From Perkinsus olseni (Eukaryota), in contig JABANN010000106.1 of the NCBI GenBank assembly GCA_013115125.1, positions 51,296 to 71,295 of the forward strand: 20,000 bases of DNA, written 5' to 3'. Positions within the stretch are counted from its first letter, which is position 1, and every line of letters starts with the position of its first letter. The position numbers were made by a program, and so were the translations under genes. Below the pieces are notes generated by a model. That model did no database searches, was not told where the DNA came from, and was given only the letters and a program-made list of their open reading frames with translations. This document shows positions 1,024-10,942 of the stretch, one piece after another.

Positions 1024-4000
1024 CTACAGCAATTGCGGTGCTTCCGCGATGGGCTTCTTTGCTTCGCTCCGCTTAGCCGACGACTTTTTCTGGCTCTGCT
1101 TCTGCTGCTGCTTCCTCTGTATCAGTGTGATGCGATCCCCCAGACTGAGTGCTATGCCCTGTGTTCTGGAACGGATCCTGACACTGCCGCTTAGAGAGCC
1201 GTCAGGATTCTTCTCTAGTGAGACGTTCGCCAGAGCGTCCTCACCGAAGATCGATCGGGCGTATCTGAGGATATGGATCGAGCACAAAAGAGTAACTATC
1301 GACACTCTTGGTTCCCTAGCGCTCATCCGGAGGTATCTTAGGTTGACCTCGGGGCCACATAGCGTCGAAGATTCCTTCATCACTTGCGCACTCCAGTCTT
1401 ATTACAGGTTAACGGCCACGAACTTGGACTGTGGGCCGAGCAGCTTCGACAGGCTACTGGACTCATTCAGCTCCCTCGCAACTTCTGCCTTGACCAACGC
1501 CTGAAGAGGCACGACATTCGGATGTCGTGATGCGGCAGATCCAGACGCTGTCATATGGAATTTCATTCTTCGATGTAACAGACGGAGAGTCGCCTGATAG
1601 TCTATTCTCTTCTCTTCACCTTCTTCGCAGTGTGAGTGTCCTCTCCTGACTTCACACTAGCACGAACCTAAAAATCAACGATACGTGAATCGCTTCGCTC
1701 CGCTCAAACTGCCGCCATACCTCCCTCCTGCCAACGATGCTCATATTCGTGTTCTCCATAAGGTTGGCTAAAAACTTCCGAGGCTCCACACTGGTGTTGG
1801 TGATACTGATCTTGTTCTCCCACTCAAATTCGGACCTGTCGCCAAAAATTTCCAACATGCAGACGGAGCGAAGCAAAAGATATGCCTTACCACATGGTTC
1901 TGAAGTTCAACTCATTCACCCAGGCTCTCTCAATGTAGTCCAAAATATCAACATGAAGCTCGTTCAAAACCAAAGATTCCTAAAACGTATCTTTTCACCC
2001 GCAAAAAACTGCCTCAACCTCCCTCACCTTATCGTCAGCCGACTTCATATCGTAGGCGACATAACCGTAGATAACGCCGGTCTCAGTCGACGACACCTTG
2101 ATCGTCGCATAAACAACAGCATGAGCACCCGGTGCCAGTGTAACACACTGAGGCCTCTCAACGATCTTCAAGTCACCTACAATCGACACTATTGAGACAC
2201 TGATCGACACTTTCACTATTAAGCTCTCACCTTGAGTACTCAGCTCAACCTGAATGTTCTGCAGAGTCGTGTTCGTACGGTTGAAGACATTCAATTCCAA
2301 CACCTGCAACCAACGACAAAAAACAAGTATCGCTTCGCTCCGCTGAGAATTATCTCCACAACGATGATCTTACCAAGTCGAAGCTGTGCACACGGAGGAA
2401 GCCCTCAACGTAAACAGGATCCGCCAGACCGGTCATGGGCAATACCCTGAACAAAGGACGATGTTCACTAAGAAGAGCTTCCTCTTCGAGTCCTCTCAGA
2501 AGAGCCGCAGTGGTAACGGGGTAAATGATTTTTCCTCCGCTGTGAACCCCCGCGCTGGAGCCGACAGATGCCCTCAGATCACGAGGAGACGCTTATGAAA
2601 AGAACGAAAAGAGAGCAGATTTTGAACTGAGACTGACGGGAGTCCGTTGCCCGCCGAACAAGCGCTCCAACGAGTGGCCCCGAGCGTCGAGTCAAAAAAT
2701 AAATTATCTCCACCGTACGCAGGCGGCGCGATCGACCTCTCTAAAGCCCCTACTTGTCCAGTCGTTCAGCAAATAATGCGCCAGTCTCGAATTCACTGGT
2801 CGGAGAGCCATCAGTAGTCGAGGCGGTTATCATGGAGCTGTCGTCACTTTGGAAAAGGTCACAGCCGCTGTCGTCACCATCGTCATCCACAGTAGCACCT
2901 AGAGGTGTGAAACGCCGTTCCCAGGGATCGAACTCGAGACCACCGCTCTCGGACAGGGCAGGGGTGCTCGTCCGCTCAACTACCTGGCTTCAACTGTCTG
3001 AAGAAGACGAGGTCGTCCGGTTGTTTGCTCGTGTCCCGCATGGTGCTCTCCTCGGCATTAGCTGGGTCTTCTCCCGCTTCCAACTCCAGGACCTAACAAG
3101 AACAGTGAAATATCGCCGGTGGGAGTCGAACCCGAGACCTTCTGCCTACCTGTTTCAGGGCGTTCCTTGCCTGGTTACCCGATCCCCACTCGCGCTGACA
3201 ACTGCGCTCGATCTGAAGTGGACAGAGGTACGCCGATGAGTCATGAATCGATGCACGGGGGTATCGAACCCGGGACCTACACTCTTGTTCGGGGCGACGA
3301 TTGCCCTAACGCACTGAGTTAATCGACTGACAGCATCAGTATCGGTGACTCTGCCATTCACCGCTCCACTTGCCGATGCCTCAACGTCGCTCGCACCTGA
3401 AAAAGTCTCATGATACGCCTATCCTGAGAGTATCTCGGGCTGACTCGTGCAAGATACAAATAAGGTCGACTCGAATCCGGCACGTAGCACGAATGCTCAC
3501 CTTCCTGCTTTGAGACGTTCTCACAGAGCCTCACCAGATTGGCAAGAAGGAAGCAAATCTGATTCTTCAGAACCACAGGGCAGCTGTGAACTAAATAGAA
3601 ACGTGAAATCAAGATTTCTCCGCTCCGTCGTCGGAGTAGCTGACTTACGAACTCCTCCCTTGACGAGCAGTTTAGTGGCAGTTACTCCGACCATCGTGGC
3701 CAACAGCGAGTCTCCCTCGGATATCAGTTTACCTGAAAAAGCAGAGCTCCGACTTGACCTCTTTTGCATCTCGCACGCTCAACCCAAAGATATCCCCCTA
3801 ACTACGCATCGGGGTCTTCGACTCCTTATCATTCCTGTCCTCCTCTGCCGCACTGCCGCCGTCATACCTAATCCAAATTGACTAACTTCAGCTCTGTCGG
3901 GATGCTAACCAATCATACACTGTCTCGTTGGCGTATGTGCCGTCCGCCAATACCACCGTTCGGGTGGTGACCTTGGTGCCTGAGAAGGGAAAGACGGTAA

Positions 4001-8236: not shown

Positions 8237-10942
8237 ATGTATGACGTCTTCCACTACAACCCACGCATGGTTGTTACGACCAGGTTGTAACGTATGCCAC
8301 GCACCTTTCGCCAGTACTTTCATCATCACACTGTTTCTTCTCCGTCAGGACCTCGCTGGATCATCGATCGCTTCCACCGGAACTGCGCGCGATAGGAAGG
8401 TGCCGGAAGTCCACCATTCTGCGACGATCAGCGGTAGCGGAGCGATGCTAGATTCCCACTAGCTATACCGCTCCCCTTCTTCAGGTTCTCATACTCAGGC
8501 ATATGCGTGCCTGTCCACGACGGTGCATCGACCACCCGAGGTGCGGTCAGAAGTGCCTCGTTCTGGACCAGGAACTGTAGTAATCGGTGGATTGTGGACC
8601 TTCCGTTCTTCCTGTGGTTTCGGTTCGCTTTCGGAAAGTTAGCGTGGTGCTTCTTCTTCTGCATCATTGATGAGGACAGGGATTCCGGGGCCTGTTTTTT
8701 TGCTTCGCTACGCTTGAGATTTGGGTGCCTCAGGTACAATTCGGTGCCTGCGTTTTCCTTGCATGGATGCTGCGAGTGTCTTAACCCGCTGGTAGCTGCT
8801 CGGTCAGAACTCGACCATAAACGGGAGTTGTTGGCCGGGCCGCCTCTACCGGTGCCCCTCCATGAAATTCAAGGATACCTTCGGGAATGTGTCCGGTAAT
8901 AAGGAAGCATGCGTCTCTCTTCACGTCTGGATTCGCGGTGGTGTTTCGCAGGAGACTGTGCCGTGATTGGTAGTTTTTAATAGCATAAGGTCCTGCAATG
9001 ATACCGCATGTTTACGAGACTTGAGTCTGTGTGAGGCTTGCTTTAATGAAACTAGGATTCATGTAGTTAGCGTCGTTCGGTTTACTCTTATGTGCATACC
9101 GATGGTGACGTGGCGGTGATGATCGGGGTCAGAACGGCTGTATGATTTCGGTTCTTCGGCAGTACGCGGGAAGGGCGAATTGGGTTGGTGTCTCTGCGGT
9201 AGTGGTGGGCAGAAGGAGGGTATGTACTCGTTGGGTTTATTAGGTACTTTTCTTGCTGCAATGAGCTCATAGTCATCGCCACGGTGTATGCCTGTCGATT
9301 TGCTGAGAACGTATGCATGCGCCATTGGAATTGGCGTATTATTGTTGCCGTAAGCGTCTTTTTGGCCTGTAAGGTAATACGGCGGGCTCGCTCTCGTGAG
9401 GTCGCGGGTTCTATTCCCATGCTGGGCATTTTCACCACACTTCCTGGTCTCAGGTGTGGGAAGACTATTGTCTTTTTCTGTCCAATTTGCAAGACTGTTT
9501 TATCTACCTTAGCAAGTAGGCATCAATTTCGTGGCGCGCGAAGATGAAAATTCCTATCAGGTGCGGTCTGATTCAGCTCGGAGCCTATGGCGGCGGACCG
9601 CCACTGTACAGGCTCAAAAAGCTCGAGGCCTTCGCATTAGCCGATATACTTCAGTGGAATGTGAATATTCAGTCACCCGAGTAAGCGAAAGGTCCCCGGT
9701 TCGAATCTCTGCACGTTCTATTCTCCCCTGTCGCAGATACTATGAATTTTATTTCTGCTTGGAGCAGAGCAGCATAGGGACTTCTCAGGGCAGTATTCGG
9801 AGCGTCGGCGGTCTCCGGAGACTATCTACTACACCGGATGCGGTCGGTCATCGGGCTGCCCTCGCGTTTGGTATTCGCTATGCCACGGAGCCCCTCGCAT
9901 GGATAGTTGGGCTGTCATGCGTGAATTTCATAGTTCCCTCAGGACTCTGTTATACTAACATCAAGTGGCGATGCTCTGGTAGTAACCAATGTTGACCAGT
10001 GAGTATCGCATCTCAAAAGATTCTCAGTGAGTTAACCTTCTAGGCCACTAACTTTTTCCAGATCTTCTCGGTACTCAACACCCGGCACTACTCGGGACCC
10101 GTCAGCCCGCGTATCGCCAGTATCTTTGCAGTCCCTGATGCTGCGGCGCCGAGGCAGTAGGACGAGAGTAAGAAAAATCCCGTTACTTGACTTGGTCGTT
10201 TGGATGCCTTATTCGCTCAGGTTTCGGCGGGTCATAGGTTGGTAGTGCCAGATGAGTATCTTCGGCACGCATGCACAGAATCTATAGGCTGCGCAACTCG
10301 GCCGGTGAGTGTTTATCACCTCTATCTTCCACTGCTCCTCACACCTCGACAGGCGTTCTCGGTCTGTTGATCACGCGAGCAATCCCCATTGCACGAGTTT
10401 ACTCGCCACTGGTCCTCCTGAATGCGAAGTATTCTGTGTTCTCTTGAATGGTCTCAAAGTCGCGAAATTACTGATTTCGGTTTCTACCTGAGAGGTTAGC
10501 GGGAAGATATGAGATTGACCCACCCCCCTCTAGAAGGAGCCGACGCATTCGATGCATGCTATCGCCGCCATCAATTTCTTTGCGACCTGTCATCTCCAAT
10601 TTTCGGTTGAGCTCCGCTGTCTCATTCTCAGGTGCGCAAGTCATGGGTGGAGAGATGTCCTTCGCTATGTGACCCGACAGCAGCTGAGCTGCGTCGCCGT
10701 TCGTTGGACAAGGGGAATCCTTTCGTAGGCAACTGGGGTAAGCCAAAGGTCGCGGGTTCGACCCCACCAGTCTGCGTGTTCCCCACATATCGTTGAGTAT
10801 ATCGAAGTCTTGTTCAGCTCATTCCCCGCCAGCCGAGCCTATGGTGTCTCTTCGAGTCCTCTCTACTAATGGGGGCATGGAGGCGTCGCCGAAGGCTAAG
10901 AGGACCGTTGGGATGCTGCCTGGAAGAGCCGCTTGCTTGTAG
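8237..10942 (+). CDS. Cyclin-box protein, cyclin Y / PHO80-like, multi-exon
   Basis: Spliced core (exons ending at 8896, 8952-8969, 9244-9373, 9454-~9515, ~9612-9680, 9737-) reads PLHEIQGYLRECVRRLCRDWYFSCCNELIVIATVYACRFAENVCMRHWNWRIIVAVSVFLACKVWEDY...LKKLEAFALADILQWNVNIQSPEYYEFYFCL. This parallels cyclin Y NWKRIVLGAILLASKVWDD...[27 protein letters not shown]. The ATG at 8237 and the last exon 10818-10942 (TAG) are the best guesses; N- and C-terminal exon boundaries are less certain. Confidence 0.8.
9374..9453 (+). repeat. Cyclin intron with a tRNA-like T-arm/B-box element
   Basis: TCGTGAGGTCGCGGGTTCTATTCCC. Confidence 0.6.
9681..9736 (+). repeat. Cyclin intron starting with a tRNA 3'-half-like sequence
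   Basis: GTAAGCGAAAGGTCCCCGGTTCGAATC. Confidence 0.65.
10738..10817 (+). repeat. Cyclin intron starting with a tRNA 3'-half-like sequence
   Basis: GTAAGCCAAAGGTCGCGGGTTCGACCCC. Confidence 0.65.

Follow-up and report, generated by a model that had tools for sequence, protein, structure and literature searches.

How new spliceosomal introns originate is a long-standing question, and the generators known so far are mostly DNA transposons that were found via their near-identical copies. The question is posed again by a stretch of 20,000 nucleotides (nt) from Perkinsus olseni, hereafter referred to as the window, in which seven short introns of two genes, encoding coatomer beta (COPB) and a cyclin-like protein, each contain a sequence resembling the variable loop and T-arm of a transfer RNA (tRNA). 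What are these sequences, and were the introns there before them? The answer that we favor on balance is that the copies are decayed remains of a tRNA-derived mobile element resembling a short interspersed nuclear element (SINE), with tRNA-Thr as the best-supported source, and that this element most likely created the introns rather than landing in older ones.

The seven sites had been pointed out in a first-pass annotation of the sequence, and a pattern search with the 19-nt consensus AGGTCNNGGGTTCGANNCC recovered the same seven. At no more than two mismatches the pattern has six matches (0.09 expected), at no more than three it has seven (0.62 expected), and neither count was reached by any of 200 shuffled sequences. 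The bare 11-nt T-loop word GGTTCGANNCC is not in excess in the window, with nine occurrences against 4.9 expected and 13 of 200 shuffles reaching nine. A profile built from the seven copies found no eighth copy in the window; a weaker copy that had been proposed near position 3470 was likewise not found by this profile, although the site nevertheless lies within an intron (3500-3397). The copies reside in four of the 31 COPB introns and in three of the 12 cyclin introns, all of them of the GT-AG type, and always on the transcribed strand. In the window as a whole we defined 56 introns with a total of 6946 nt, equivalent to 17% of the strand-positions, and the probability that all seven copies fall into intron-sense sequence by chance is about 5e-6. 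The claim of an exclusive sense orientation with respect to the host gene also holds (7/7, one-sided binomial p = 0.008), while the clustering of the copies in COPB and the cyclin gene (7/43 introns as opposed to 0/13 elsewhere) is not significant by a rough estimate. The introns and their copies, with the matches of the pattern search given as the motif, are the following:

Positions 2899 to 2983, minus strand: intron of 85 nt in which the GT coincides with G7-U8 of a full-length tRNA-Thr(TGT)-like copy located at 2988-2913; tRNA positions 1-5 lie in the exon; motif at 2924-2942; T-run at 2912-2910.
Positions 3093 to 3149, minus strand: intron of 57 nt with its first base at tRNA position 35 (GTAGGC...); motif at 3122-3140; T-run at 3110-3108, following position 73 (3111).
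Positions 3213 to 3280, minus strand: intron of 68 nt in which the variable loop AGGTC (tRNA position 44) comes immediately after the GT; motif at 3260-3278.
Positions 6267 to 6358, minus strand: intron of 92 nt consisting of a 14-nt leader, a whole tRNA-like body (6344-6271) and a TTCAG that doubles as 3' splice site; tRNA position 57 is T; motif at 6282-6300.
Positions 9374 to 9453, plus strand: intron of 80 nt (alternative donor at 9350) with a tRNA-like part that begins near the 3' side of the D-arm; motif at 9399-9417; T at position 57; TTTT at 9429-9432.
Positions 9681 to 9736, plus strand: intron of 56 nt starting at tRNA position 35; motif at 9690-9708.
Positions 10738 to 10817, plus strand: intron of 80 nt starting at tRNA position 35 (GTAAGC...); motif at 10747-10765.

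Are these segments indeed removed from the transcripts? The two host genes, the exons of which are identical to annotated Perkinsus olseni proteins, are arranged divergently:

Positions 971 to 7566, minus strand: COPB gene with 31 GT-AG introns, an open reading frame (ORF) for 1077 amino acids (aa) and a 5' end near 7566 to which a spliced leader is trans-spliced.
Positions 7758 to 10942, plus strand: cyclin-like gene (Cyclin_N) with about 12 introns, divergent from COPB.

The seven segments are real introns. Of the 73 junctions in RNA contigs from four of the 24 listed runs, 15, none of them in COPB, were inspected. Intron 10738-10817 is among these 15; it is skipped by RNA contigs in all four runs, so that its junction is seen directly, and it is also present in the exact alignment of the annotated P. 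olseni protein P0125. The first-pass annotation had called for a check by RNA sequencing; the other introns rest on protein alignment or on the length and coverage arithmetic of the RNA contigs. Intron 9681-9736 is fixed by the exact P0125 alignment and intron 6358-6267 by an exact spliced alignment of the COPB fragment P0001. For intron 9374-9453, P0125 confirms the acceptor at 9453, while the annotated protein uses a donor at 9350. This donor lies 24 nt upstream of 9374, is annotated in both P0124 and P0125, and deletes the eight residues VSVFLACK. Judged from the protein sequences, 9374 is the likelier donor because the orthologues from P. marinus as well as P. chesapeaki retain the eight residues, and 9350 is either a mis-annotation or an alternative donor. 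The copy is intronic with either of the two. Introns 3280-3213, 3149-3093 and 2983-2899 rest on an ORF-preserving model of the COPB gene, which suggests them through its intron sum and the coverage bins. Two RNA contigs cover COPB from about 7565 to about 950 and require introns that sum to exactly 3277 nt, and this is the total of the final model with its 31 introns and open frame of 1077 aa. When the exonic bases per 667-nt bin were calculated as bin depth divided by contig depth, the model predicted the exonic bases of nine out of nine bins within 3 nt in both runs, and retention of any one of the four tRNA-like COPB introns would add 57-92 nt to its bin. First COPB models obtained by dynamic programming had intron sums of 2698-2878 nt instead of 3277 nt and were discarded.

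The identity of the host genes follows from protein comparisons. One minus-strand exon matched coatomer beta, with a partial Perkinsus olseni protein as the best match. Two P. olseni fragments, P0001 (399 aa) and P0121 (188 aa), proved nearly identical to the window in tblastn and in spliced alignments; the latter contain 11 and six GT-AG introns, respectively. These two partial fragments are all that the protein searches returned for COPB of P. olseni; the window and the RNA contigs together support a single COPB gene with the predicted 31 introns and 1077 aa. P0125 aligns exactly to the cyclin gene with ten GT-AG introns and an ATG at 7758, whereas an ab initio model of this gene proved wrong and was replaced by the protein-guided alignment. 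A Pfam Cyclin_N match at 9203-9373 (E = 3e-4) does not reach the curated cut-off for that fragment alone, and orthologues of the gene are present in P. marinus and P. chesapeaki. Introns in the window are very short in general (median 68 nt, minimum 43 nt, n = 56), and the donors GTAGTA and GTAGGT (6/56 each) are favored over GTAAGN. Loose ends of RNA contigs at 7567(-), 865(-) and 11444(+) have the sequence ..ATCTTGGCTCA, the 3' portion of the spliced leader of Perkinsus (PMC3101222); they mark the trans-splice acceptors of three genes, namely COPB, the minus-strand gene that comes next and a plus-strand gene with high coverage.

Conventional tools do not recognize tRNAs here. ARAGORN at default settings reports no tRNA gene in the window, and Rfam gives no tRNA match for the whole window or for sub-windows of 401, 116 and 111 nt at E<=10; what it returned on small sub-windows were chance matches to lncRNAs and a 13-nt tmRNA T-loop. 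A single weak ARAGORN match, obtained only with thresholds lowered to 90% (-ps90), concerns the 9374 copy. The T-stems keep about three of five pairs, and none of the seven copies has a fold more stable than that of its shuffled versions (z from -1.55 to +1.44). The statement that no copy folds as a full tRNA is thus borne out by the lack of a default ARAGORN or Rfam tRNA call, and a role at the level of RNA structure, which had also been considered, receives no support, as there is neither a cloverleaf nor a fold more stable than shuffles.

The relationship to tRNA emerges when the copies are aligned on the T-loop. tRNA positions 44-62 are common to all seven, the variable-loop and T-arm consensus occurs at the correct spacing, and in two copies the homology extends across the tRNA body. 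Together with the last five exon bases, the 2983 copy is identical to a real tRNA-Thr(TGT) at 55 of 74 positions over the whole length; it scores 23, with 16 for the next isotype and a maximum of 18 among shuffles (0/60 reach the score), and the score of its 5' half alone was reached by one of 100 shuffles. The 6358 copy matches a real tRNA-Ile at 50 of 74 positions with a score of 18 (shuffle maximum 16, 0/60); Thr lies only two points lower, which leaves the isotype ambiguous. The remaining five copies are shorter and correspond to the 3' half of a tRNA only. When 49 introns were scored against tRNAs, a set that left out seven cyclin introns defined later, the seven copies were the seven best matches, with scores of 17-27 in sense, 10-14 in antisense and up to 16 for the other introns. 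A D-arm-like stretch, CTCAATGGTAGAGCAAAGGTCTC at 11819-11842(+) in intron 11629-12011, resembles a tRNA 5' half and was rejected, its score of 16 equaling the best of 40 shuffles. A B-box-like sequence is found in all seven copies (five with GGTTCGA..C, two with T57), while a D-arm resembling an A-box is limited to copies 2983 and 6358, both boxes being judged by the familiar consensus. On these alignments, tRNA derivation of the copies is well supported. A chance or convergent motif without any tRNA ancestry would fit the lack of excess of the T-loop word alone and the fact that AGGT after GT is in part the donor consensus GTAGGT, the start of six of the 56 introns, but it is effectively refuted by the frequency of the 19-nt pattern and by the two copies that align over their whole length to real tRNAs above all shuffles.

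Which tRNA was the source? Three of the element introns (3149, 9681 and 10738) are alike over the first 24-28 nt, starting from the very first base, and the 24-nt head occurs at no fewer than 120 metagenome loci. In 19 of 20 loci that were checked, the head is part of a tRNA-Thr gene and its initial GT occupies anticodon positions 35-36; given this placement, the donor GTAAGC of these introns corresponds to G35-U36-A37-A38-G39-C40 of the tRNA-Thr anticodon loop. Intron 9681-9736 agrees at every one of its first 14 nt with positions 35-48 of two metagenome tRNA-Thr(AGT) genes. The metagenome scan had been aimed at perkinsid introns; it gave genuine tRNA-Thr genes instead and is uninformative on other perkinsids. 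From these comparisons tRNA-Thr is probably the source, an assignment that is good for four copies. In four of seven copies a T-run starts at position 74, right after the discriminator at position 73 (TTCAG, TTTCAC, TTTTCAC, TTTCAC), and CCA is present in none of the seven. Since the T-run follows the discriminator and CCA is lacking, the sequences point to a source of the gene or precursor type that ends at an RNA polymerase III (Pol III) terminator, and not to mature tRNAs or tRNA halves. The term "tRNA-half introns" used in the first-pass annotation therefore needs to be divided: it describes the extent of three copies correctly, yet these lack CCA and are not descended from halves of mature tRNAs.

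An origin of this type would also suit a different scenario, in which every copy goes back to a separate capture event from a tRNA gene or pre-tRNA of its own, as filler DNA during double-strand-break repair or by reverse transcription of nascent Pol III transcripts, with no self-propagating family involved. The acceptor 3' strands indeed differ in all seven copies, the anticodon-stem 3' strands GCGAA, GCAGA and GCCAA match different real tRNA-Thr variants, and the isotypes indicated vary between Thr, Ile and Pro. However, pairs of copies share changes that a functional tRNA would not be expected to have, and position 35 is the common start of three copies, so that we consider independent capture very improbable. 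The 6358 and 9374 copies, which are 74% identical over 39 nt, have in common T57 and the sequence TCGTG before AGGTC; position 57 of tRNAs is normally a purine. The 3149 and 10738 copies are 82% identical over the first 28 nt and share the same mismatched T-stem (C50/A64) as well as CCCACC, and 10738 and 9681 are 87.5% identical over the first 24 nt. Because copy pairs share changes unfit for a working tRNA, the sequences point to a propagating family with subfamilies that was copied from already decayed sources. The 5' ends of the copies are located before position 1, at positions 7, about 19, 35 (three copies) and 44, and they differ even within one subfamily (full length in 6358, about position 19 in 9374), which is the pattern left by retroposition with 5' truncation.

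Conservation along the copies is uneven, and this is where a function for the host genes comes into consideration. The motif columns show the majority base in 97 of 105 cases, compared with 51 of 105 in the neighboring stem and acceptor columns, a value near random for seven sequences, and GGTTCGA..C is kept in five of the seven copies. Such a block, AGGTC...GGTTCGA..CC, could have been kept by selection in the host genes as a B-box, i.e., a DNA site for transcription factor IIIC (TFIIIC), or as an intronic RNA splicing signal, and there is a precedent in human intronic tRNA look-alikes of mitochondrial origin that reportedly promote splicing (PMC7722341). The human effect, as described there, requires a cloverleaf, for which the Perkinsus copies provide neither a tRNA call nor a stable fold. 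Two copies carry T at position 57, a TFIIIC site in the DNA predicts neither the sense-only orientation nor a start at the donor, and the difference between broken T-stem pairs (about 13/35) and motif changes (8/105) is only modest. Uneven conservation is also expected from the Pol III promoter of the source copies themselves; it can reflect this promoter need as well as selection in the host gene. Taken together, host-gene selection is an improbable explanation.

Did the element land in introns or make them? The simplest alternative to intron creation is that ordinary SINEs or tRNA pseudogenes were inserted into existing introns, that splicing tolerates only insertions in sense and near the donor, and that deletions subsequently shortened the introns. 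Age and decay of the copies, as indicated by their T-stems and the absence of a tRNA call, a lack of relatedness among the 3' intron parts, and neither a target duplication nor a tail being found, all would be compatible with insertion into older introns; the cyclin exon junctions, conserved without insertions or deletions in the P. marinus and P. chesapeaki proteins, fit old and new introns equally. The dimensions of the introns argue against such insertion. The element introns measure 56-92 nt, of which the tRNA-like part and T-run leave no more than 7-36 nt uncovered. In all seven this remainder is less than the shortest of the 56 introns (43 nt), which argues that the element made the intron. 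The donor is found at fixed tRNA positions, namely at position 35, the first intron base, in three copies, at position 7 in one, and as a GT joined to A44 in another; this and the use of the TTCAG trailer as acceptor in one copy argue in the same direction. Furthermore, the arrangement exon-AG/intron/GT-exon is seen in four of seven element introns as opposed to five of 49 others (Fisher p = 0.009), an enrichment that one would predict if the element was inserted at proto-splice sites or if AGGT was duplicated. Prior existence of the introns therefore appears unlikely to us, albeit less so than the alternatives discussed above. Among the possibilities raised in the first-pass annotation, a tRNA-derived SINE or intron-generating element fits best in view of the subfamily changes, the varied 5' starts, the nearly complete filling of the introns and the AG/GT flanks.

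Several points weigh against creation of the introns by a tRNA-Thr-derived element, among them the uneven conservation already mentioned. The copies are only 68-87% alike over 20-41 nt, far below known introner families. The 3' intron parts past the T-run have no similarity between copies, and among the seven there are no terminal repeats, no clear target duplication beyond AGGT and no tail. For the 9374 copy, the 5' part is not above chance, as 77 of 100 shuffles do as well. The isotype is ambiguous for three copies, the pairwise scoring being best with Ile for 6358 and with Pro for 9374 and 3280. The Thr assignment is confounded in that GTAAG is a general donor consensus too and that the tRNA comparison set was fetched with a pattern from these very introns and is rich in Thr (144/366). 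Finally, we infer the creation of the introns from their size and boundaries only.

If a mobile element did create the introns, the events could be pictured as follows. The source would have been a Pol III-type transcript or a gene copy ending in a terminator T-run, which would have spread by retroposition with 5' truncation. In coding sequence, the only survivors would be sense insertions that the spliceosome can remove exactly. The tRNA body would supply ready donors that fit the preference of the organism for GTAGNN or GTAAGN, i.e., G35-U36-A37-A38-G39-C40 of tRNA-Thr, G7-U8-A9-G10, or GT plus AGGT at the variable loop. The T-run and a pyrimidine-rich tail would help to form the acceptor, with the trailer TTCAG serving as 3' splice site in one copy, and splicing would leave the reading frame intact if insertion took place at an AG/GT site or if AGGT was duplicated. 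As a more tentative generalization, which we consider possible though not the more probable case, copies of Perkinsus Pol III units (tRNA-Thr and its decayed descendants) may be ready-made introns, in which GU-AAGC of the anticodon loop or G7-U8-A9-G10 acts as 5' splice site and the terminator T-run as polypyrimidine tract, such that copies retroposed in sense create introns.

If true, this would be the first class of introners derived from tRNA, and if the density in the window (7/56 introns) held genome-wide, it would be a major source of the many short introns of this lineage. A tRNA element whose conserved nucleotides double as splice signals would represent a different and very simple route of intron gain. 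It would explain why one tRNA is particularly suitable, as only NGU anticodons followed by A37-A38-G39 spell GUAAG, and it would make intron gain testable in a lineage with several sequenced species, beside the introner-rich dinoflagellates. Decayed families of this kind would be found by anchoring on tRNA consensus positions and would be missed by clustering on whole-intron similarity.

A second repeated motif was observed in the window. The sequence AATTTCGTGGCGCGYGAAG has four matches at no more than three mismatches, where 0.01 are expected, all of them sense to the host gene:

Positions 6929 to 6947, minus strand: match to AATTTCGTGGCGCGYGAAG in intron 6958-6908.
Positions 7680 to 7698, minus strand: match to AATTTCGTGGCGCGYGAAG upstream of the COPB spliced-leader site.
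Positions 9525 to 9543, plus strand: match to AATTTCGTGGCGCGYGAAG in intron 9516-9560.
Positions 15884 to 15902, plus strand: match to AATTTCGTGGCGCGYGAAG in intron 15853-15920.

RNA contigs break into unrelated sequence exactly at the sites 7680 and 9525, as if the motif were part of a longer repeat or an RNA end.

How do the Perkinsus copies compare with known systems? A survey of Perkinsus introns reports intron frequency and lengths only, and none of the papers found on Perkinsus and introners describes tRNA-like introns; searches on tRNA-like sequences or tRNA-derived SINEs and intron gain gave nothing closer. The main texts of PMC9860276 and PMC12130899 do not mention tRNA, SINE or Perkinsus, while their supplementary tables could list such a family. 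Introners are intron-generating transposable elements that occur in Micromonas, Aureococcus, fungi and dinoflagellates including Amoebophrya, Symbiodinium and Polarella (PMC7789003, PMC11282704); retrotransposon-derived introners are on record, with non-LTR (long terminal repeat) elements accounting for about 5% of classified families (PMC12130899). The Perkinsus copies resemble introners in that the repeated element makes up the whole intron, is always in sense and is inserted at AG/GT-like sites, and in that element and target each contribute part of the splice sites; moreover, introners occur in the sister lineage, the dinoflagellates. Known introner families exhibit high similarity over the whole intron and are mostly DNA transposons with terminal inverted repeats and target duplications. 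Near-identity over the entire intron is not found among the seven copies, which, unlike introners, are similar over 20-41 nt only, lack inverted repeats, stem from a tRNA and have their donor at fixed tRNA positions.

Mammalian intronic SINEs lean toward the antisense orientation. With tRNA-derived SINEs, the Perkinsus copies share what may be a tRNA-related head with a B-box-like sequence, an A-box-like D-arm in the two long copies, dispersal, variable 5' truncation, diagnostic subfamily changes and the lack of CCA. They differ in that no tRNA-unrelated body, LINE (long interspersed nuclear element)-like tail, poly-A or target duplication was found in them and in that they are 40-80 nt long and sit as entire introns. 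Yeast extra-TFIIIC sites, which contain a B-box only, lie for the most part between genes and show no preference for a host gene's strand. They are similar to the Perkinsus copies in having the isolated B-box consensus GGTTCGANNCC outside a working tRNA gene, as far as the sequence suggests, but the variable loop, D-arm, discriminator and T-run that flank it in Perkinsus show ancestry from a whole tRNA. The nimtRNAs, human intronic tRNA look-alikes of mitochondrial origin, are reported to enhance splicing and to need the cloverleaf to do so (PMC7722341). They have in common with the Perkinsus copies that tRNA-like sequences occur in introns of protein-coding genes and that a link with splicing is proposed, whereas they keep the cloverleaf and sit in long introns, and the Perkinsus copies have lost the fold and nearly fill short ones.

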